Positions 4,330 to 14,574 of a stretch of DNA of 64,000 bases are shown piece after piece; position 1 is the stretch's first letter; each line of letters opens with the position of its first letter. Origin of the DNA: Eubacteriales bacterium (GTDB lineage: Bacteria; Bacillota; Clostridia; Oscillospirales; JAAYXM01); NCBI GenBank assembly GCA_045546975.1, contig JAZQDV010000010.1:257039-321038 (forward strand), written 5' to 3'. The position numbers and the translations under genes were made by a program. The notes beneath the pieces are model-generated. The model ran no database searches, was not told the origin of the DNA, and worked only from the letters and a program-made list of their open reading frames with translations.

Positions 4330-5442
4330 TTAAAAGTACATGAACATTTCGCATTTTATCATACCGTTGTACAATTTACGCTTTTTTACGGCTTTTTTTC
4401 CGTAAAAATGCTCAAATTCGGGATGCGAGGTGATGATGTATGAGTTAAAGTCAGAAAGAGAGTTCATCGCTTTTCCGAAGTCACGATAGAGTCGTTCTGC
4501 ATCGCGGAGTTCCATAAGCCTCTCGCCGTAAGGTGGGTTTGTTACGCAAATACCGCCATTTTCTGCAGGGGAGAAGCGCCTTGCATCAGAAACCTCAAAC
4601 GTGATGTATTTATCAACACCTGCTTTCCTTGCGTTTGATTTTGCAAGTGCTATTGCCTCGGGGTCAGTATCTCCGCCCCAAAGCTTAAAATCACGCGAAA
4701 ACATTTTCTCTTTCGCAGTCTCGCGGTGAGACTGCCAATCCGATGCTTTTGAAATGCTCCATTTTTCTGCTGCAAAGCGTCGGAGTAATCCGGGTGCTCT
4801 ATTTTCTGCAATCATCGCGGCTTCTATCAATATGGTACCGGAGCCGCAGAAAGGATCGCAGAAGAATTCGCGTCCGCGGTATTTTGAAATCTGGACCATT
4901 GCCGCGGCAAGTGTTTCGCGAAGTGGTGCTACACCTGATATGGCACGGTAACCGCGCTTGTGTAAGCCGGTACCCGACGTATCGATATATAATGTTGCAA
5001 CGTCACGCATAAGAGAAAACTGTATCTGATACTTTGCGCCTGTCTCTTCAAACCAACTTACGTGGTATTTTGATTTAAGACGCTCTACAACAGCTTTTTT
5101 TATAATACTCTGACAGTCGGGTACTGAGAATAGCGCAGAATTCAAACTGTGTCCCTTGACAGGGAATTCGCCATCCTTCGGGATAAATCTTTCCCAAGGG
5201 AGGCTTTTAACACCGTCAAAAAGCTCGGTAAAAGTTTTCGCGCGGAAAGACCCGACAACGAGAAGTACGCGCTCGCCGGTACGGAGCCAGATATTTGCAA
5301 GAGCCATATCGGACAATGTGCCGGAAAACATAACACGGCCGTTTTCGGCTGTAACATTTTCGAGGTTAAGTCTCGTAAGTTCTTTTGCTGCGATGCCCTC
5401 AAGCCCGAAAAGGGTAGGGACGCAAAAAGTGAATTTATCCAT
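4330..5442 (-). CDS. THUMP-domain class I SAM-dependent RNA methyltransferase (YpsC/RlmL-like)
   Basis: 370 aa. SAM motif I DPFCGSGT and catalytic NPPYGERL, with a THUMP-like N-terminal half. Confidence 0.8.
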   Translation of the reverse strand: MDKFTFCVPTLFGLEGIAAKELTRLNLENVTAENGRVMFSGTLSDMALANIWLRTGERVLLVVGSFRAKTFTELFDGVKSLPWERFIPKDGEFPVKGHSLNSALFSVPDCQSIIKKAVVERLKSKYHVSWFEETGAKYQIQFSLMRDVATLYIDTSGTGLHKRGYRAISGVAPLRETLAAAMVQISKYRGREFFCDPFCGSGTILIEAAMIAENRAPGLLRRFAAEKWSISKASDWQSHRETAKEKMFSRDFKLWGGDTDPEAIALAKSNARKAGVDKYITFEVSDARRFSPAENGGICVTNPPYGERLMELRDAERLYRDFGKAMNSLSDFNSYIITSHPEFEHFYGKKAVKKRKLYNGMIKCEMFMYF

Positions 5443-5458
5443 AAATTACTCCGGAAGT

Positions 5459-7909
5459 CTACTCAGGAGAAACTTCTCCTTGTTGTGTTGGGTTAAGCCA
5501 ATCTGGTGTGCCCTCGGGGACAACACTTTCTTCAGGTGGAACCTCATCCTGTATCTCGTTTGGGTCTTCCTCTTCAGGAATGAAGGGGTTATAGCTGTGA
5601 GATGTGCATACTGAGTTCATCGGTGTTGCAGTTCCTGTCTCAAAATAATGTTCACCCTCGGACGGCATCCAGTCGCGGAAGGTATACTGCTCGTCGGCGA
5701 GCACAACACCGGGGAGAGCAAATGCGCGTTGCAGACGCATGAGAGCAACTGTCTTACGGCTGTCGTAAGGACAGAAGTCAGAGGCTATCATGTTCGTCGA
5801 AGTATCAATATCGATGCTCTCGTGTATATCGCAGGATTTTTTCGGTACATCATCCTTGTGGAAATAGCCTGCGACTATCTGCGAACCGCGTGGGTCGAGT
5901 GCGCAATGCTCTGTCGGGAGAAGTCCGCTTCTTGAACAAACGTTGACAGTTTCAAATCCACTGACTGATTCAAAGTTTTTAACAGGCAAGTCCTTGTGTG
6001 CCGCGTTCATAACGCGCTTCCAGGTAGTAAGTGCAGGAGAGAGTGATTTGGAGATATATTTTGGTGAGTCATACCCAAACCACGCTGCACCGACATAATA
6101 GGGAGTATATCCCACAAACCAACGATCTTCGTCGTTGTTTGAAGTACCCGTTTTTGCAGCGGCAGGCATACCGCGGTCAAGCTTTGCGTATGTTCCGGTA
6201 CCTGAATCGACAACGTTTTTGAGCATGTGAGTCATATATGCTGCGGTTTTTTCGCTCATTGCCTCAGAGGATTTTGTTTCCTTTTCAATGATAACGTTTC
6301 CGTCGCTGTCAAGAACCTTCGTGTAGGTCTTTGGCTCAAAATATGTTCCGCCGTTTGCAAACGGGACATAAGCTGCAGCCATTTCAAGCACGGTAATACC
6401 GTTTGTGAGCTGACCGAGCGACAACGGCGCGAGGTTCTGGTCTCCTGCCTTTGAAAGGGAGGTAACTCCGAGGTTTACAGTCAGGAAGTTGTAGGAACGC
6501 TCAATTGTGAGTTTTTCAAGCGTTCTCATTGAAACGGTGTTTATTGACTGTTTTACAGCTTCGTTTATATTTGTTCTGCCTGAATATGAACGAGTTTCGT
6601 TTTTTGGGTATTCGCTGTTGTTGAGTACAGTTATAGGAGCGTCGTCTTCAACAGAATACGGAGTAATCAGGCCGTACTCAATAGCGGGTGCATAAACGGA
6701 AATTGGTTTGATAGAAGAGCCGGGAGGACGCTTGGTCTGCGTTGCACGGTTAAGTATTCGTGCACCGGCTTTCTGTCCTCTGCCACCGCGCATTGCAAGG
6801 ATGTTTCCGTTTTCCGGGTCAAGCATAATCATAGCGCATTCGGGCTGTACCTTGCCACTATATGACGGGAAGTAACTGTTATTTTCAAATGCATCGTCCA
6901 TAGCAGCCTGGATTTCGGGGTTTACAGTTGCGTATATCTTAAGTCCGCCTGAATATATCATACGGAGAGCAACAGCTTCTGTATATCCGCGTTCATTTAC
7001 AAGGTCATCTACAAGGTCCTCGATAATCTGGTCAACAAAATATGACTGTACATTTGCAGACGGATTATCCTTTGATGTTCTGTCAAAGACAACATCTTCG
7101 TTCTTTGCTGCCTCATATTCCTCTTTTGAAAGCATTTTGAGGTCGTACATACGATTTATAATATTGAGCCGGCGTGTTTTGTTGTTTTCCGGGTTGATAT
7201 AGGGGTTGTAGTATGTCGGGAGGTTTGTAATTCCGACGATTGATGCAGACTCCGCGACGGTAAGCTCAGAAACGTCCTTGCCGAAATACTTCTGTGCCGC
7301 AGTGCCAACACCGTAGCAACCTTCACCGAGGTAAATTGTGTTGAGATACATTTCAAGGATGGTATCTTTGTCATAATGGCGTTCAAGATAAAGAGCTCGC
7401 ATGATTTCCTGAAGCTTACGCTTAACGGAATCCTGGTTATCGCCCGTAAGGTTTTTTACGAGCTGCTGAGTGATGGTAGAGGCGCCGAACTCACTCTTCA
7501 TCTTGAAAAACATATTTACACTTGCCTTAAAGGTTCTTGTCCAGTCAACACCGCTATGCTTCATAAAACGGTGATCCTCGATGGCTATTGTCGCGTTTTT
7601 CAAGTGCTCCGGCATATCTTCAAGGTCCACCCAGGTGCGGTTCTGAGAATCGTAAAGACGCTCAAACTCATGCTCGTTTCCATCTTCATCTACAGAATAC
7701 ACGATAGAGGAATAGTTAAGGCGCATAGCCTCAAGCTCGATATCGATTTTTGAATCGAGCGAGAGCATATAGACAAGTAAGACAGCAAAGCATATAGCAA
7801 AGGTTGCTGCAATGATATGTAGTCCTGCACGGATGAAAAACCACTGCGGTGTGGAAAAGAAAGGGTGCTTCTTCTTTTTTGAACCGGTTGATTTTTTATT
7901 TATATCCAA
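5459..7909 (-). CDS. penicillin-binding protein 1A (bifunctional glycosyltransferase/transpeptidase)
   Basis: GT51 motif EDHRFMKHSGVD, transpeptidase SxxK (GSSIKP) and KTGT. Preferred start is TTG 7909, with a GGAGG 7 nt upstream and an extended -10 TGGTATAAT at 7952-7944. ATG 7933 is an alternative. The track start at 8119 overlaps ylmC and is rejected. Confidence 0.9.
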   Translation of the reverse strand: MDINKKSTGSKKKKHPFFSTPQWFFIRAGLHIIAATFAICFAVLLVYMLSLDSKIDIELEAMRLNYSSIVYSVDEDGNEHEFERLYDSQNRTWVDLEDMPEHLKNATIAIEDHRFMKHSGVDWTRTFKASVNMFFKMKSEFGASTITQQLVKNLTGDNQDSVKRKLQEIMRALYLERHYDKDTILEMYLNTIYLGEGCYGVGTAAQKYFGKDVSELTVAESASIVGITNLPTYYNPYINPENNKTRRLNIINRMYDLKMLSKEEYEAAKNEDVVFDRTSKDNPSANVQSYFVDQIIEDLVDDLVNERGYTEAVALRMIYSGGLKIYATVNPEIQAAMDDAFENNSYFPSYSGKVQPECAMIMLDPENGNILAMRGGRGQKAGARILNRATQTKRPPGSSIKPISVYAPAIEYGLITPYSVEDDAPITVLNNSEYPKNETRSYSGRTNINEAVKQSINTVSMRTLEKLTIERSYNFLTVNLGVTSLSKAGDQNLAPLSLGQLTNGITVLEMAAAYVPFANGGTYFEPKTYTKVLDSDGNVIIEKETKSSEAMSEKTAAYMTHMLKNVVDSGTGTYAKLDRGMPAAAKTGTSNNDEDRWFVGYTPYYVGAAWFGYDSPKYISKSLSPALTTWKRVMNAAHKDLPVKNFESVSGFETVNVCSRSGLLPTEHCALDPRGSQIVAGYFHKDDVPKKSCDIHESIDIDTSTNMIASDFCPYDSRKTVALMRLQRAFALPGVVLADEQYTFRDWMPSEGEHYFETGTATPMNSVCTSHSYNPFIPEEEDPNEIQDEVPPEESVVPEGTPDWLNPTQQGEVSPE

Positions 7910-8439: not shown

Positions 8440-9189
8440 ATGTCACAGGTAATCTCAATGAAGCAACTTCTTGAAGCAGGTGTTCACTTCGGACATCAGA
8501 CAAGACGTTGGAACCCCAAAATGGCTCCGTACATCTTCACGGAGCGTAACGGTATCTACATCATCGACTTGCAGAAGACCGTTAAGAAGCTCGAAGAGGC
8601 ATATTTCTTTGCACGCGATATCGCAGCACAGGGTAAGAGCATTCTCTTCGTAGGTACAAAGAAGCAGGCTCAGGAAGCAATCAAGGAAGAGGCAGAGCGC
8701 GTAGGTATGTACTATGTAAACGCTCGTTGGCTCGGCGGTATGCTTACAAACTTCAAGACAATGCGCCGTCGTATCGACCGCCTCAATCAGCTTAAGAAAA
8801 TGGAAGCTGACGGTACTTTCGACCTTCTCCTCAAGAAGGAAGTTATTAAGCTCCAGGCAGAAATTGCAAAGCTTGAGAAGTATCTCGGCGGTGTTAAGGA
8901 AATGAACAAGCTTCCGGGTGCAATGTTTATTGTTGACCCGCGCAAGGAGCGTAACGCTATTGCAGAAGCTCGCAGACTCGGTATTCCGGTAATCGCTATC
9001 GTTGATACAAACTGCGATCCTGAAGAAGTTGACTATGTAATTCCGGGTAACGATGACGCTATCCGTGCAGTTAAGCTTATTTCTCAGACAATCGCAAACG
9101 CTGTTGTTGAAGCTCGTCAGGGCGAGCAGAGCGCAGAGGTTGCTGAGACTGCAGAAGTAGCAGAAGAAGCTGCTGCAGAGCAGGAATAA
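8440..9189 (+). CDS. rpsB: 30S ribosomal protein S2
   Basis: [37 protein letters not shown] before ATG 8440. Confidence 0.97.
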
Positions 9190-9219
9190 TTAAAATATAA
9201 CTAAGGAGAGTGTTACATT

Positions 9220-10131
9220 ATGGCTTTTACAGCTGCTGATGTTAAGGCGCTTCGTGAGTCTACGGGCGCAGGCATGATGGATTGCAAGAACGCACTTGCA
9301 AGTTCTGACGGTGATATGGAAAAAGCACTTGAATTCCTCCGCGAGAAGGGTCTTGCTGCTGCTGCAAAGAAGGCGGGTCGTATCGCTGCTGAGGGTATGG
9401 TTTACGCAACAGCTACTGCTGACGCAGGCGTTGTTGTTGAAATTAACAGTGAGACAGACTTCGTTGCAAAGAATGCAGACTTCCAGAAGTTTGCAGCTGA
9501 CGTTGCAGAGACAATTCTTGCTTCAAAGCCGGCAGACGTTGATGCTCTTATGGCATGCAAGTGCGCAGGCTCTGATATGGATGTTGCTGCAGCTCTTCAG
9601 GATAAGATTCTCACAATCGGCGAGAACATCAAGATTCGTCGTTTCGAGACATTCGTTGGTGGAGTAAACGTTCCTTACATGCACATGGGCGGTAAGATCG
9701 GTGTTCTTATCAACCTCGAAGTTTCTGACAATATCAAGGGTTCAGAAGCTGTTTCTGAGCTCGGTCGCGACCTTGCAATGCAGATTGCTGCTATGAGCCC
9801 GTCATGGCTTACAAGTGCAGAGGTTCCGGCAGACATCCTCGAGAAGGAAAAGGAAATCCTTACAGCACAGGCTATGAACGAAGGCAAGCCCCAGCAGGTT
9901 GCTGAGAAGATGGTTATGGGTAGAATCAAGAAGTTCTACGCTGAGAACTGCTTGCTCGAACAGGCTTATGTAAAGGAAGACAAGATTTCTGTTACACAGC
10001 ACGTTGCAAACGTTGCAAAGGAACTTGGTGGCGAAATCAAGGTTATAAAGTTCGTTCGTTTTGAAAAGGGCGATGGCCTTGAGAAGCGTGAAGACAACTT
10101 TGCAGAAGAAGTTGCAAGCATGATGAAGTAA
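9220..10131 (+). CDS. tsf: translation elongation factor Ts
   Basis: MAFTAADVKALRESTGAGMMDCKNAL. Directly downstream of rpsB. Confidence 0.97.
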   Translation: MAFTAADVKALRESTGAGMMDCKNALASSDGDMEKALEFLREKGLAAAAKKAGRIAAEGMVYATATADAGVVVEINSETDFVAKNADFQKFAADVAETILASKPADVDALMACKCAGSDMDVAAALQDKILTIGENIKIRRFETFVGGVNVPYMHMGGKIGVLINLEVSDNIKGSEAVSELGRDLAMQIAAMSPSWLTSAEVPADILEKEKEILTAQAMNEGKPQQVAEKMVMGRIKKFYAENCLLEQAYVKEDKISVTQHVANVAKELGGEIKVIKFVRFEKGDGLEKREDNFAEEVASMMK

Positions 10132-10144
10132 AATTCATAAAATT

Positions 10145-10182
10145 ACGGCGCACAACATTTTTGTTGTGCGCCGTTTTTTTTT
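10145..10182. terminator. terminator after tsf, shared with the convergent small gene
   Basis: Stem acggcgcacaac/gttgtgcgccgt followed by T8. Confidence 0.8.
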
Positions 10183-10185
10183 CAA

Positions 10186-10398
10186 TTACTGTATTGAAAA
10201 ATCTTTTTCCGAAAAAGCATTTATATTGAGAGTGGGCTCTTCTGGTGGGATGCGCTTTGTGGCATCATATACAAAATGTCGGCATTTGTATCCGAGGGAA
10301 ACTATTCCGTGATGCGAACAAATAGCCTCATTGTCGTTGATTTTTTTTGAGTACTGACAGAGCTCGCAGCGTTTTTCAATTTTTTTAGAAAAGAGCAT
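10186..10398 (-). CDS. small Cys/His-rich hypothetical protein (possible zinc ribbon)
   Basis: 70 aa. CELC...CSHH...C pattern. GGAGG RBS 7 nt upstream of the ATG. Lies 36 nt downstream of ylbJ on the same strand. Confidence 0.6.
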   Translation of the reverse strand: MLFSKKIEKRCELCQYSKKINDNEAICSHHGIVSLGYKCRHFVYDATKRIPPEEPTLNINAFSEKDFSIQ

Positions 10399-10434: not shown

Positions 10435-11562
10435 CTAAATTTTTTCGTTTTTCCACCCTTTTTTGCAAAAAATATAAATAATTCCGAGCAATAAAGGAAA
10501 ACTCAGGAAAATAGACGGTTGGGTATAAGACGTGAATTTTTCCGAAAAAGTATTTACTGCGCACGGTGAAAAATCTATGGTGTGTGATATTAAAAGAGCA
10601 AAAATCACAGAGAAAAGACTTTGTAAGAGTTTGCCGATAAAGTATTCTTTTGTGCTGAGGTTTTGTTTTGAAATGAAGTTCATAGTCTGGGCGTGAACAG
10701 ATATCCCGCCAAAAGAAATGAGGGCAGCAGAGAGCGCAAAAATAACTGTAAAGTTATCAGACTTAACAAGTGCCTCAACTCCGCATGTCATCTCGAAAAT
10801 ACCCGTTATAAAGGCTTTTGAGGAAGTTAAATCGAGTTTGCAGAGTTTGGATGCTATAACGGAGACGAAAGTCAGTATTTTCATCTCAGAAAGAATGGAA
10901 ACAAGAACGGAAAAGAAGACGATATAAGCCGAGACTGAGAGAATTGCCTGAGTCGATGAGGAAATAGCATCTGTAAAAGCAAATGAGAAGCTCGGGATTC
11001 TTTCACGGGCAAATTCTCCGTTTGAGTAATGTTCCGATATCGGTGAAAAGACGCGAAAAGAGATACCGACAAAGAATGCTGAGAGAATATGTATGAGAAA
11101 TAACATCAGCCCGGCTTTTACATTGCCCAAAAGTCCGATCCCTACAGCGCCCACGATAAAAGCGGGGCCGGTATTGTTGCAAAAGGCAAGAGCACGCTCG
11201 GCTTCCTGTTTTGTGCAAAGCTTCTTCGAATATAGTTCTGCTACCGTTACGGCACCCGTCGGATATCCACCGCAGAAGCCAATGATAAATGCTGCGGAAA
11301 GGTTTCCGTTCACCGAAAAGAAAAACGGCATAATTTTTGCAAAAAGCTTACAGAAAATATCTGAAAGGCGCAGGGACGTAAAAAGCTTTGAAAAAACAAA
11401 GAAAGGAAAGAGCGACGGGATGACTGTACCTGCACAAAGAAGTAATGCGGATTTTGCAGACGCGGCGGCATTTTTGGGGAACAAAAGTAAACCTATAAGG
11501 GAGAAAATAATAAAAAATGAAATCGTTATGTAGGAGAAACTTCGTCTTTTCAAAAAAACCAC
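10435..11562 (-). CDS. ylbJ: sporulation integral membrane protein YlbJ (nucleoside-recognition-like)
   Basis: 375 aa with about 10 hydrophobic segments. Family call is from overall resemblance only. Confidence 0.65.
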   Translation of the reverse strand: MVFLKRRSFSYITISFFIIFSLIGLLLFPKNAAASAKSALLLCAGTVIPSLFPFFVFSKLFTSLRLSDIFCKLFAKIMPFFFSVNGNLSAAFIIGFCGGYPTGAVTVAELYSKKLCTKQEAERALAFCNNTGPAFIVGAVGIGLLGNVKAGLMLFLIHILSAFFVGISFRVFSPISEHYSNGEFARERIPSFSFAFTDAISSSTQAILSVSAYIVFFSVLVSILSEMKILTFVSVIASKLCKLDLTSSKAFITGIFEMTCGVEALVKSDNFTVIFALSAALISFGGISVHAQTMNFISKQNLSTKEYFIGKLLQSLFSVIFALLISHTIDFSPCAVNTFSEKFTSYTQPSIFLSFPLLLGIIYIFCKKGWKNEKI

Positions 11563-11659
11563 TTCTTTATAAATAAAAATTAAAAATTATCATTTTATTT
11601 CGTCATATTTCGTGATATAATATTAATGGAAAGTTTTGTGTTCAAAAAACGGAGAGTCT

Positions 11660-12427
11660 ATGATGGATAAGAGAAATACAAAAAAATTCAGTAATGATGA
11701 TAATCAGTACATAATAGAAGGCAGAAACTCTGTGTTTGAAGCTTTACGGTGCGGCCGTGCGATAGATAAAATATTGTATGCGGACGGCGACAGAAATATA
11801 AGTCATATACTTGCTGCGGCAAAAAGTGCAGGCGTTGTGGTTTCAAAGTGTGACCGCAGAAAGCTCGACTCCTTGAGTATGAGCGGAGCGCACCAGGGTG
11901 TAATCGCTTTTGTTGCTGCTCACGCCTACAGCACGGTTGAGGAAATTCTAAAAAAAGCAGAAGAGAGTGGAAGACCTCCGCTTATCGTTGTGTGTGATGA
12001 GATTTCCGACCCGCACAATCTCGGTGCTATTATAAGAAGTGCTGAAGCTTCGGGCGCGCACGGTGTAATTATCCCGAAACGGAGAAATGCAGGCCTTACA
12101 GGTGTCGTTTCAAAGGTTGCGTCAGGCGCTCTTGAACATATTCCGGTCGCGAGAGTATCAAACATACCGTCGACTCTTAACGAGCTTAAAAAGAAGGGGC
12201 TCTGGATTTACGGGACGGGTCTTTCTGCAACGAGCGACTTATACAAAACTGACCTTACAGGTCCTGTGGTAATAGTCATTGGCTCTGAGGGAGATGGGAT
12301 GGGACGTCTTGTAGGTGAGTGTTGCGATGTTGTTATGAGTATCCCGATGATAGGGAAAACGCAGTCATTGAATGCAAGTGCTGCGGCAGCGGTAGTTCTC
12401 TTTGAGGTATTGAGACAAAGACTTTAA
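11660..12427 (+). CDS. rlmB: 23S rRNA (guanosine-2'-O)-methyltransferase RlmB (SpoU/TrmH family)
   Basis: SpoU motifs DEISDPHNLGAIIRSAEASGA, IGSEGDGM and SLNASAAAAV. ATG 11660 follows a GGAGAG RBS. Confidence 0.85.
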   Translation: MMDKRNTKKFSNDDNQYIIEGRNSVFEALRCGRAIDKILYADGDRNISHILAAAKSAGVVVSKCDRRKLDSLSMSGAHQGVIAFVAAHAYSTVEEILKKAEESGRPPLIVVCDEISDPHNLGAIIRSAEASGAHGVIIPKRRNAGLTGVVSKVASGALEHIPVARVSNIPSTLNELKKKGLWIYGTGLSATSDLYKTDLTGPVVIVIGSEGDGMGRLVGECCDVVMSIPMIGKTQSLNASAAAAVVLFEVLRQRL

Positions 12428-12447
12428 TTCGGAAGGGGTGTCCGAAA

Positions 12448-14574
12448 ATGGAAGATAAAAATCGCTTTGACGAAACAATTTCAGGAATGTCCTTGCAGGA
12501 CATCCTTGATGAAATCAATGCGGATTCTTACGACGTGGATGAAAGCATCAACTTAGATGAAATCCTCGCCGAGTTTTCTGATGCTCCAAAAACAAAGGAA
12601 GAGCAGCCTGCTTTGCCGATAACAGAAAAAGAAGAAATAAAGATATACGATAAGAAAGAGGTTACAAAGAACGAAACGCCTCAAAAAAAAGTGGAAGAAA
12701 AGCCGCAGGAGAAGGTAGAGGAAGAACCGAAACCGATTGAAGAAACTGCTCCGAAACCGATTGAAACAATTGTTCGTCCGTGGCAGGACGGTGTTTACGG
12801 AGATATGGATGTATCCGACACCATACGAAACTCACAGAAAAAGAAAAAAACATCAAAATTCTCCGAGACATTTGATACATTTACACGAAGCGATCTTTTT
12901 GAAAGCAAAAATAAAGAAGAGAAGCTTGAGACAAGAAGCGTTGAGGAAATCCTCATTGAAAACAAAAAGGTATCAAGATTTCTCGGTATCCGTGCGGCGT
13001 TTCTTTTTGTTATAAGCTTGATTTCCTGCTACCTTGCATTTGCAGAGCCGCTTAACTTATTTATGCCGCAGATAATCGCATATATCGTAAATCCGTTCAG
13101 GTATTTGTTCCTGACTGCGTTCTTTGAAATTCTCGCAATGCTCCTTTCAATAGACGTAATATCAAGGGGCCTTTATCAGATAATAAAGCTCCGACCGAAC
13201 AGGGACTCTGCAATTACGTTCGCATCCTTTGCTACGCTGCTGCATGTTATAACAATTATGGCGGCACCAAAATGGGGAGGATGGCTTCCGTATAGCTGTA
13301 TATCCGTTCTGTGCCTGTTCTTTGCAGTGTTCGGAAAATGGATAAGGGCAAGGGCGATTACGCGTGTCTGCAGGACTGTAAAGGCCGCGAAAGAGCCAAA
13401 TGTTCTTCATGTAGAGACAAACTACGGCGAAACAAACATAATAAAACAGACAACAACAGATACAAAAACATTTATTGCGCACATAAACGATAAAGATGCA
13501 ACAGAAAATATCTGGAGATATTTCTCACCGATTGTTATTATTACATCAGTTGTTGGAGCGGCGGTGTCAGCATTTGCGACAAAAACACCGCAGAACTTTT
13601 TCTGGGCACTTTCGGCAATATCCTGTGTTTCTGCACCGCTCTTTACGGTGCTGAGCTTTGTTTTTCCGTTCTCGGTAACAGCAAAGAGTCTTTCCTCGGT
13701 GGGTACGGCACTTTCGGGCTGGTATTCAGCGACGAATCTCTCGCGTCAGGGAAATGTTGTTGTGTGTGATTCTGACCTCTTCCCGAAAGGATACGTTTCA
13801 CTCAACGGCCTTAAAATACTTGGCAATTTCTCGCTCGAGCAGACTGTGTGCTATGCGGCAAGTGTGATATCAGAGACAGGGAGCGGACTTTGTGACGTGT
13901 TCTCTGATCTCTTAAAGAGCAGATATGCTGCCACCGTTAAGGTCAATAATCTTCGTTATCATGAGTCGGGCGGCGCGGAAGCTGAGATAGAAGGCAACTC
14001 TGTTCTTGTTGGTACAGCGGGCTTTATGATTCGCTCAGGTATCCGCCTTGTATCAGGCACAAATACCAAAAACGCGATATTTGTTTCGATAAACAAACAG
14101 CCTGCAGGTGTTTTCAACATAAACTATAAGGTGAACAGGGAGGTTGAAAGAGCCCTTCATCTGCTTGTGAAGAAAAAGATTTCGGTTATTCTTGCAGTAA
14201 GGGATTTTAATCTCACTCCGATGATGGTTGAAAAGCTTTTTGGATTGAAGGACGGAAGCCTTGAATATCCCGAGCTCGAACAGAGATTTGATATGTCAAA
14301 CGAGGAACAGTACATCACCTCAGACATAAGTGCAGTAATCACAAGAGCGGGACTTTATCCGTTTGCCGCTGCAGTACTTGCTGCAAAAAAGCTCAGAAAG
14401 GTAACTATAAGAAATATCTGTATGACAACGGCAAGCTCGTTTATAGGTATGTTCTTTATGTTCTATCTGACGTTTATGCAAAGACCTGAGCTTATAACAC
14501 CACATACGGTTTTGGTGTATATGCTTCTTTGGTTCATTCCTATGTATATGCTTTCGTTAAAAGTTAAAAAATAA
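12448..14574 (+). CDS. membrane protein resembling a degenerate P1B-type ATPase (catalytic motifs lost)
   Basis: 708 aa. The first ~175 aa are acidic/Lys-rich and low-complexity. The remaining TM/cytoplasmic layout aligns by eye to CopA-type ATPases, with DKTGT->DSDLF, TGDN->VRDFN, CPC->CVS, and no TGES or GDGxNDxP. Confidence 0.55.
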   Translation: MEDKNRFDETISGMSLQDILDEINADSYDVDESINLDEILAEFSDAPKTKEEQPALPITEKEEIKIYDKKEVTKNETPQKKVEEKPQEKVEEEPKPIEETAPKPIETIVRPWQDGVYGDMDVSDTIRNSQKKKKTSKFSETFDTFTRSDLFESKNKEEKLETRSVEEILIENKKVSRFLGIRAAFLFVISLISCYLAFAEPLNLFMPQIIAYIVNPFRYLFLTAFFEILAMLLSIDVISRGLYQIIKLRPNRDSAITFASFATLLHVITIMAAPKWGGWLPYSCISVLCLFFAVFGKWIRARAITRVCRTVKAAKEPNVLHVETNYGETNIIKQTTTDTKTFIAHINDKDATENIWRYFSPIVIITSVVGAAVSAFATKTPQNFFWALSAISCVSAPLFTVLSFVFPFSVTAKSLSSVGTALSGWYSATNLSRQGNVVVCDSDLFPKGYVSLNGLKILGNFSLEQTVCYAASVISETGSGLCDVFSDLLKSRYAATVKVNNLRYHESGGAEAEIEGNSVLVGTAGFMIRSGIRLVSGTNTKNAIFVSINKQPAGVFNINYKVNREVERALHLLVKKKISVILAVRDFNLTPMMVEKLFGLKDGSLEYPELEQRFDMSNEEQYITSDISAVITRAGLYPFAAAVLAAKKLRKVTIRNICMTTASSFIGMFFMFYLTFMQRPELITPHTVLVYMLLWFIPMYMLSLKVKK

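Follow-up and report, generated by a model that had tools for sequence, protein, structure and literature searches.

A conserved, rlmB-linked family of P1B-type ATPase derivatives lacking catalytic motifs in Clostridia

What is left of a P-type ATPase, and what might it do, once the residues that drive its pumping cycle are gone? This question is raised by a gene, here called X, in a 64,000-nucleotide stretch of contig JAZQDV010000010.1 from a Eubacteriales bacterium (the whole stretch is hereafter called the window). X lies between rlmB, which encodes the 23S rRNA Gm2251 2'-O-methyltransferase, and era, and a first-pass annotation described its product as a membrane protein that resembles the P1B-type (CopA-like) pumps with their functional signatures replaced. 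Few membrane enzymes have been studied as closely as the P-type ATPases. X could be a copper pump in decay, it could still be an enzyme or a channel, or it could have been retained for a role other than pumping.

X is a complete open reading frame at positions 12448-14574 of the window's plus strand, on which all features of X given below also lie. The frame is intact, starts with ATG, and encodes 708 amino acids. Reading the sequence upstream, we found the ribosome-binding site GGAAGGGG at 12431-12438 (plus strand), 9 nucleotides 5' of the start codon, so the earlier description of an intact frame with a good ribosome-binding site was correct.

P1B ancestry and the loss of the catalytic motifs

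The relationship of X to the P1B pumps is visible only through family profiles and a structure model, and single-sequence searches are nearly blind to it. The X sequence by itself matched nothing in Pfam, even at E ≤ 1, and nothing in the PDB by phmmer; its sole match in NCBIfam was a collinear one to TIGR01525 (heavy-metal P-type ATPase; E = 0.006). The first homologue search from X returned 61 clusters, none with Pfam domains, and 37 of these went into a broad family profile that was used for the PDB search and for an AlphaFold2 model. Against the PDB, this profile matched Legionella CopA (3rfu) with E = 2e-20, aligning profile positions 367-635 with CopA 334-611, a span that runs from M3/M4 through the phosphorylation loop and the nucleotide-binding (N) domain and back into the phosphorylation (P) domain. 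The next 21 profile matches were without exception P1B ATPases, whole or as isolated P/N domains.

The structure model, which has a predicted local distance difference test (pLDDT) score of ~90 over residues 160-708, gave the same answer. The 14 best Foldseek matches in the PDB were all P1B pumps (CopA in its E2P, E2-Pi, and E1 states, ATP7B, HMA4, ZntA, and CadA), with 608-728 aligned columns, E values from 2.3e-17 (4bbj) to 2.6e-11, and TM-scores of 0.46-0.54, and KdpB and other P-types ranked below them. The most remote subfamily, anchored by the member P0061, has a profile of its own that matches CopA (E = 2.7e-9), and hhalign joined this subfamily to the clade of X with a probability of 100% (E = 6e-42, 571 columns). 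When the family profile was run against a named database, members scored at least 483 bits and the next sequences were genuine pumps with HMA, E1-E2_ATPase, and Hydrolase domains at ~105 bits; nothing in that database scored between these two values, and no intermediates were found. Homology of X to the P1B pumps is thus established by two independent methods, profile and structure model, and X is a member of the P1B branch of the P-type ATPase superfamily by lineage and fold. The similarity is highly significant by both measures, and the resemblance that had been noticed by eye lies far beyond chance.

The phosphorylation motif DKTGTLTxG of the pumps appears in X as (C)DSDLFPKG, with the K, T, G, and T all replaced in either register. 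The first-pass annotation placed DSDLF correctly, at residues 441-445 (13768-13782), and was right that it replaces DKTGT, but its claim that only the Asp is kept probably does not hold. The alignment is anchored, without gaps, by G448, the conserved Gly of DKTGTLTxG, and by the end of strand beta1 (residues 436-439), and these anchors put C440 (13765-13767) at the canonical phospho-Asp position and D441 and D443 opposite the K and G of DKTGT. In relatives, position 440 is C, R, T, G, S, or L, and Asp solely in two remote members. Because this variable C440 occupies the canonical Asp column, the phospho-Asp has most likely been lost as well, and D441 would not be its counterpart, with the reservation that the register of DKTGT to X could be off by one. 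Retention of the phospho-Asp was rejected on the basis of this register analysis.

The remaining signatures have fared no better. TGDN is replaced by VRDFN (residues 584-588), in which the D and N alone are kept, E611 stands at the conserved Lys of PxxK, and the segment that should carry GDGxNDxP has been deleted. In the N domain, SEHP(L) reads TGSG(L) and GxG reads SGG, within the GGAEAE segment located at residues 508-513; what remains is two glycines, G509 (second in GxG) and G522 (from VGN). The M2-M3 loop, which should hold the actuator (A) domain, is only ~38 residues long with a single beta-hairpin and contains no TGES, in line with the shrunken actuator that had been described. In ordinary P1B pumps this domain comprises ~120 residues. 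The residues of the metal site in P1B-1 pumps are CPC, YN, and MxxSS. M4 of X reads SCVSAPLFTVLSFVFPF and lacks CPC; the CVS that replaces it, as annotated, sits at residues 393-395 rather than 392-394, and Cys393 is S, A, or T in relatives. Neither YN in M5 nor MxxSS in M6 is present in X, and we found no match to an N-terminal heavy-metal-binding (HMA) domain with its CxxC, the N terminus being disordered.

These losses are a property of the family as a whole. Neither DKTGT nor GDGxND occurred in any of 149 representatives that are mutually less than 50% identical, none of 99 members of the most remote subfamily had DKTGT, TGD[NSHDGK], or GDGxND, and no intact DKTGT or GDGxND was found among the 37 aligned homologues, so that orthologues with intact motifs were seen in none of the three sets. 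Together these sets cover about 300 relatives, with identities that reach down to 16%. X had no match above the gathering threshold to Pfam E1-E2_ATPase (PF00122) or Hydrolase (PF00702), and 18 other members yielded a single faint Hydrolase match (E = 0.066, 14 bits against a cut-off of 26.4) and otherwise nothing. Because the catalytic motifs and metal ligands are lost, X should be unable to run the Post-Albers pumping cycle: judged from its sequence, it could neither form an aspartyl-phosphate nor dephosphorylate one via TGES, and it could bind neither Mg2+ through GDGxND nor a metal at the canonical intramembrane site. X is very probably a non-catalytic descendant of a P1B-type (CopA-like) ATPase, a pseudo-ATPase. 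Every catalytic feature of membership that we tested was lacking, so copper or heavy-metal ATPase would be the wrong annotation for X.

The architecture around these lost sites is well preserved. Eight hydropathy segments, matching AlphaFold2 helices, and best structural matches that are P1B only all indicate the eight-helix P1B plan, with the extra helices MA and MB before M1. Helices MA, MB, M1, and M2 (residues 181-301; 12988-13350) are placed by hydropathy, AlphaFold2, and Foldseek. Hydropathy puts MA at residues 181-199, M1 at 255-273, and M2 at 277-301, MB is long and kinked (217-246) with a near-invariant G241, and the modeled helices of this block span 165-198, 216-246, 252-272, and 283-312. 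The A-domain remnant (residues 313-351; 13384-13500) follows, its hairpin formed by modeled strands 318-325 and 328-335. By model, alignment, and sequence, M3 and M4 (residues 355-418; 13510-13701) occupy residues 355-377 and 388-418. M3 includes the FSPIVI segment that had been compared with the pumps (located at 359-364), and the M4 helix is broken at SAPLF (395-399), beyond which P407 aligns to the P of ATPMS in CopA.

Of the cytoplasmic headpiece, the P domain runs from strand 1 into the N domain and then into two further P-domain strands. The family motif DSDLFPKG (residues 441-448; 13768-13791) stands at the DKTGTLTxG position in a hidden Markov model alignment to CopA, the N-domain remnant (residues ~460-560; 13825-14127) aligns to the N domains of CopA and CopB, and RDFN (residues 585-588; 14200-14211), with its near-invariant D586, aligns to the TGDN position. 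The strand SAVITRAG (residues 627-635; 14326-14352), in which R633 and G635 are conserved, stands at the GDGxND position; the rest of the P domain beyond it, the last beta-alpha units, is deleted, and the chain enters M5 directly. M5 and M6 (residues 636-706; 14353-14565) are placed by AlphaFold2 and sequence, with hydropathy segments at 657-675 and 688-706. X therefore resembles the P1B pumps (CopA, ATP7A/B, HMA4, ZntA, CadA; TIGR01525) in its eight helices including MA/MB, its kinked MB, its M4 break, its P and N domains after M4, and a sequence that aligns collinearly with theirs from M3 up to the TGDN region. It differs from them in having a disordered tail with a helix motif in place of the HMA domain, an A domain reduced to a hairpin, a P domain without its last beta-alpha units, and none of DKTGT, TGES, the conserved Lys, GDGxND, SEHP, or CPC/YN/MxxSS.

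The tail itself (residues 1-160; 12448-12927) is cytoplasmic, acidic, and Lys-rich (42 D+E and 26 K+R in the N-terminal ~160 residues), and it stands where P1B pumps carry their heavy-metal-binding domain or domains. It is predicted to be disordered (pLDDT 31-57) except for three short helices in the AlphaFold2 model. The annotated acidic and Lys-rich composition was borne out over ~160 residues, but the PKPIEET repeat only in part, as two adjacent copies of the peptide; TRF detected no DNA tandem repeat behind them. Tail length is highly variable across the family, with up to ~480 extra residues, and no fused Pfam domains were found in these long extensions.

Constraint, family size, and conserved residues

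If X were a remnant on its way to being lost, we would expect to see broken frames and relaxed selection. All 17 orthologues examined from species-representative genomes were intact, and for pairs with unsaturated dS (0.18-0.85) the whole-gene ratio of nonsynonymous to synonymous substitution rates (dN/dS) was 0.037-0.067, which indicates strong purifying selection. By region, dN/dS was ~0.03 in the P/N domains, 0.02-0.09 in the transmembrane segments, 0.05-0.14 in the A-domain remnant, and 0.07-0.20 in the disordered N terminus, where constraint is looser than in the core. Selection on the "dead" cytoplasmic headpiece is as tight as on the membrane domain. X family members thereby show which parts of the P-type scaffold stay under constraint once catalysis is gone.

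The family is also large. Searched exhaustively with HMMER, 1.84 billion representatives (50%-identity clusters) yielded 12,670 matches at E ≤ 1e-3, 5,418 at E ≤ 1e-10, and 2,768 at E ≤ 1e-30. Because real P1B pumps reach only about 76-105 bits against the family profiles, the last class should be essentially the family itself. The best 150 matches all exceeded 500 bits, nearly all over the full profile length, in proteins of 531-1274 residues, and a word-indexed search with a 58-member profile did not extend the family. With ~2,770 clusters and dN/dS of 0.04-0.07, the first-pass preference for a conserved pseudo-enzyme over decay was well founded.

Every source name that we recovered for these proteins was "hypothetical" or "uncharacterized protein," and neither Pfam nor NCBIfam has a model for the family. 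A family model for X would annotate thousands of genes and prevent their mislabeling as metal transporters. The named hosts include Oscillospiraceae, Ruminococcaceae, Ruminococcus sp., metagenome-assembled genomes labeled "Clostridiaceae bacterium," Butyricicoccaceae, Candidatus Onthomonas avicola, and Candidatus Colimorpha enterica, and the P0061 subfamily includes a cluster with 236 member sequences. Clostridia of the Oscillospiraceae/Ruminococcaceae type are reported to be abundant in human and animal guts. There is apparently one copy of X per genome, always after rlmB. Identity between clades is 22-35% for X where it is 44-59% for RlmB, and the family looks like a single orthologous group that diverges fast between clades and is tightly constrained within them. 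These data show the family to be an ancient, strongly constrained one of Oscillospiraceae/Ruminococcaceae-type Clostridia.

Which residues does this selection preserve? Across 58 very diverse members, only two columns are invariant, G509 (13972-13974) and G522 (14011-14013), whose equivalents in published P1B N-domain structures line the adenine pocket. At least 90% conserved in the same alignment are D441, D443, F445, and P446 in the former phosphorylation loop; D586 (equivalent to the TGDN Asp), F485, and Y560; G241 in MB, P361 in M3, P407 in M4, G419, and G667 in M5 in the membrane part; and I39 and E42 in the N-terminal tail. The old catalytic center thus carries motifs of the family's own, D-x-D-[LIV]-F-P-x-G and x-D-F-N, and DxD[LIVM][FY] is present in 125 of the 149 representatives.

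The two conserved positions in the tail belong to a short helix, LDEILAEF (residues 36-43; 12553-12576), with the pattern h-x-L-[DE]-x-I-L-x-E-[FY], which we found in 108 of the 149 representatives. It is surrounded by unconserved, length-variable disordered sequence, and it recurs in members less than 20% identical to X. A weaker first copy, LQDILDEI, can be read at 12493-12516, and the P0061 subfamily has the variant [LIV]-D-[AE]-L-M-K-K-Y. Within the fetched loci the motif is confined to X proteins, and a literature search on the N-terminal motif strings found nothing. The motif has the hallmarks of a partner-binding linear motif, to judge from its pattern of conservation.

The rlmB partner and candidate functions

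In the window, rlmB (11636-12427, plus strand; Pfam SpoU_sub_bind and SpoU_methylase; TIGR00186 at 238.7 bits against a cut-off of 160) ends 20 nucleotides before X. Its listed start is a TTG at 11636; several orthologues begin with Met near Met9/Met10 of the window's protein, and the real start is probably the ATG at 11660 or 11663. No terminator-like sites were found from rlmB to mutS2, and X is co-oriented with era-recO-mutS2.

We fetched 35 loci whose X proteins are 16-70% identical to that of the window, and a co-directional SpoU_sub_bind + SpoU_methylase gene lay directly upstream of X in all 35. In six of six cases tested, drawn from very different lineages, this upstream partner passed the TIGR00186 RlmB equivalog cut-off (199-248 bits against 160). 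The rlmB-X intergenic distance was -11 to +49 nucleotides in the 22 loci measured, and the genomic arrangement shows X to be, as far as sequence can tell, co-transcribed and often translationally coupled with rlmB. The genes on either side of the pair vary: upstream we found ylbJ, aspartokinase, zapA, polA, merR, clpP, ftsH, and clpX, and downstream era, an EF-G-like GTPase, proS, dpaA-dpaB, a psiE-like gene, lytR, fba, and a radical-SAM gene. The first-pass annotation had placed X between rlmB and era, and of that arrangement the rlmB side proved to be conserved, but the era side was found only in the window's own clade (L005-L025), which rules out a conserved rlmB-X-era synteny. The X family is, then, a conserved branch descended from the P1B ATPases, non-catalytic and stand-alone, that has motifs of its own and is strictly linked to rlmB, and that strict pairing points to an unrecognized membrane-protein link with large-subunit ribosome biogenesis.

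Our best guess is that X is a non-catalytic scaffold or sensor linked to 50S ribosome maturation. With its eight-helix membrane domain, N domain, and truncated P domain retained, X would act as a membrane-anchored scaffold or sensor in which the fossil P/N headpiece serves as a ligand- or partner-binding module. The acidic cluster at the old active site and the preserved N-domain pocket glycines suggest that the headpiece may still bind something; such a module would be built from D441, D443, and D586 together with the two glycines, and it might accommodate a cation, a nucleotide-like ligand, or a basic stretch of a partner protein. On its flexible tail, the N-terminal helix L-[DE]-x-I-L-x-E-[FY] could bring in a soluble partner; RlmB itself, or its 50S precursor substrate, is the most plausible. 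These are the prime candidates because RlmB is the only constant genomic partner of X. We put this specific RlmB/ribosome-coupling mechanism forward tentatively, as possible rather than likely. A fuller version is doubtful: here the X family would be the first P-type pseudo-ATPases in bacteria to stand alone, copper-pump fossils put to new use as a membrane receptor or regulator to couple RlmB and 50S maturation physically to the membrane, with the helix docking and the N/P headpiece sensing a nucleotide or an S-adenosylmethionine/S-adenosylhomocysteine-type ligand. Three points weigh against a ribosome-linked scaffold or sensor: adjacency to a housekeeping gene could reflect shared expression needs alone, G509 and G522 could be purely structural, and in the monomer model the pLDDT of the N-terminal motif is low (~50-57).

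The nearest precedent, and the only such case on record, is guanylate cyclase beta of Plasmodium (PfGCbeta), which retains within a functional protein a degenerate P4-ATPase-like domain that has lost most of its signature residues and is thought to be regulatory or sensing (PMC6592433). That domain is eukaryotic, derived from the P4 lipid flippases, and fused to cyclase domains, whereas X is a stand-alone protein of an unrelated lineage and context. The literature that we searched on P-type pseudo-enzymes and "FUPA" families, including a 2023 field review, describes no bacterial non-catalytic P-type family. A parallel of a different kind is found in Bacillus subtilis, in which the operon of rlmB (yacO) continues with yacP/rae1 and sigH, so that there too a gene other than a methyltransferase is kept directly after rlmB in a ribosome-maturation neighborhood. 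Rae1/YacP, however, is a soluble NYN-domain ribonuclease with no known homology to X.

Alternatively, X may be a sporulation-specific membrane protein whose linkage to rlmB is incidental. Spore-formers are numerous among the host taxa, X in the window's clade has a ylbJ-like spore membrane gene on its upstream side, and in one remote lineage (locus L004) the dipicolinate synthase genes dpaA-dpaB directly follow X (8688-10120), the only sporulation link that we saw outside the window's clade. These sporulation neighbors are lineage specific, however, while the sole universal neighbor is the housekeeping gene rlmB at operon-type spacing, and in the window X shares its orientation, uninterrupted by a terminator, with era-recO-mutS2. 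We regard a sporulation-specific role as improbable.

It is also conceivable that the membrane domain by itself conducts an ion or small molecule passively, as a channel or uniporter, with the headpiece serving solely as its gate. All eight helices and the M4 break (SAPLF and P407) are indeed conserved and constrained, with dN/dS of 0.02-0.05, but the canonical ion ligands (CPC, YN, MxxSS) have been exchanged for small or hydrophobic residues, N656 is the only evident conserved charged or polar residue within the membrane, and nothing links rlmB to any transported substrate. A channel of this kind seems distinctly improbable.

Could X still be an enzyme by another route? The P domain is a derivative of the HAD fold, and D441-x-D443 follows a hydrophobic beta-strand as motif I (DxDxT/V) does in HAD phosphatases, one residue off the P-type position; X might then act as a phosphatase or phosphotransferase in the membrane, or else pump in an atypical way. 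Both Asp residues are at least 90% conserved, D586 and N588 are retained nearby, and the strong P-domain constraint (dN/dS 0.03) implies that the site matters. Beyond this motif I-like DxD, however, the HAD motifs are degenerate or gone: the motif II Thr is not conserved (R/V/T), the motif III Lys aligns to E611, and a deletion has removed both motif IV (GDGxND, the Mg2+ ligands) and the end of the Rossmann fold. The most remote members carry DASK, NASS, RARD, or DDRE at the site, and the Pfam Hydrolase matches among members are at most faint and below threshold. We therefore consider residual catalysis very improbable. Finally, the absence of all catalytic and metal-binding motifs would suit a decaying, strain-specific copper-pump remnant, but no genome examined has a broken frame, dN/dS stands at 0.04-0.07, and the family numbers thousands of diverged members with conserved motifs of their own, so this explanation is refuted by the dN/dS values and the family size, with a probability that is practically nil.

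Other features of the locus

The gene order in the window is rpsB, tsf, a 70-residue Cys-rich open reading frame (minus strand), the ylbJ-like gene (minus strand), rlmB, X, era, recO, and mutS2. The ylbJ-like gene (10435-11562, minus strand) encodes a sporulation integral membrane protein with a Pfam Gate domain that matches TIGR02871 at E = 2e-66 and 224.6 bits, below the cut-off of 304.65, and it diverges fast among relatives (37-51% identity). The Cys-rich frame (CxxC ... C ... C; 10186-10398, minus strand), between tsf and the ylbJ-like gene, belongs to no Pfam or NCBIfam family; it occurs at the same position in 17 related loci with 64-80% identity, and at 45% in L024. PADLOC and PHROGs models gave no match for three diverse members of the X family.

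Between tsf (plus strand) and the convergent unit of the small frame and the ylbJ-like gene (minus strand) there is a strong 13-bp hairpin (8 GC) at 10145-10174, with a T-run on the plus strand and an A/T-rich tail on the minus strand; it looks like a terminator, possibly a bidirectional one. Farther afield, two remote lineages share a block after rlmB-X (L001, 8585-10666; L034, 8291-10363) that consists of genes for an EF-G-like GTPase, a DUF4830 protein, a pseudouridine synthase, and an ABC ATPase, a second translation-related neighborhood. In the distant lineage of L001, the RlmB partner (4486-5961) is 491 residues long and has an N-terminal extension of ~230 residues before the region that matches TIGR00186.

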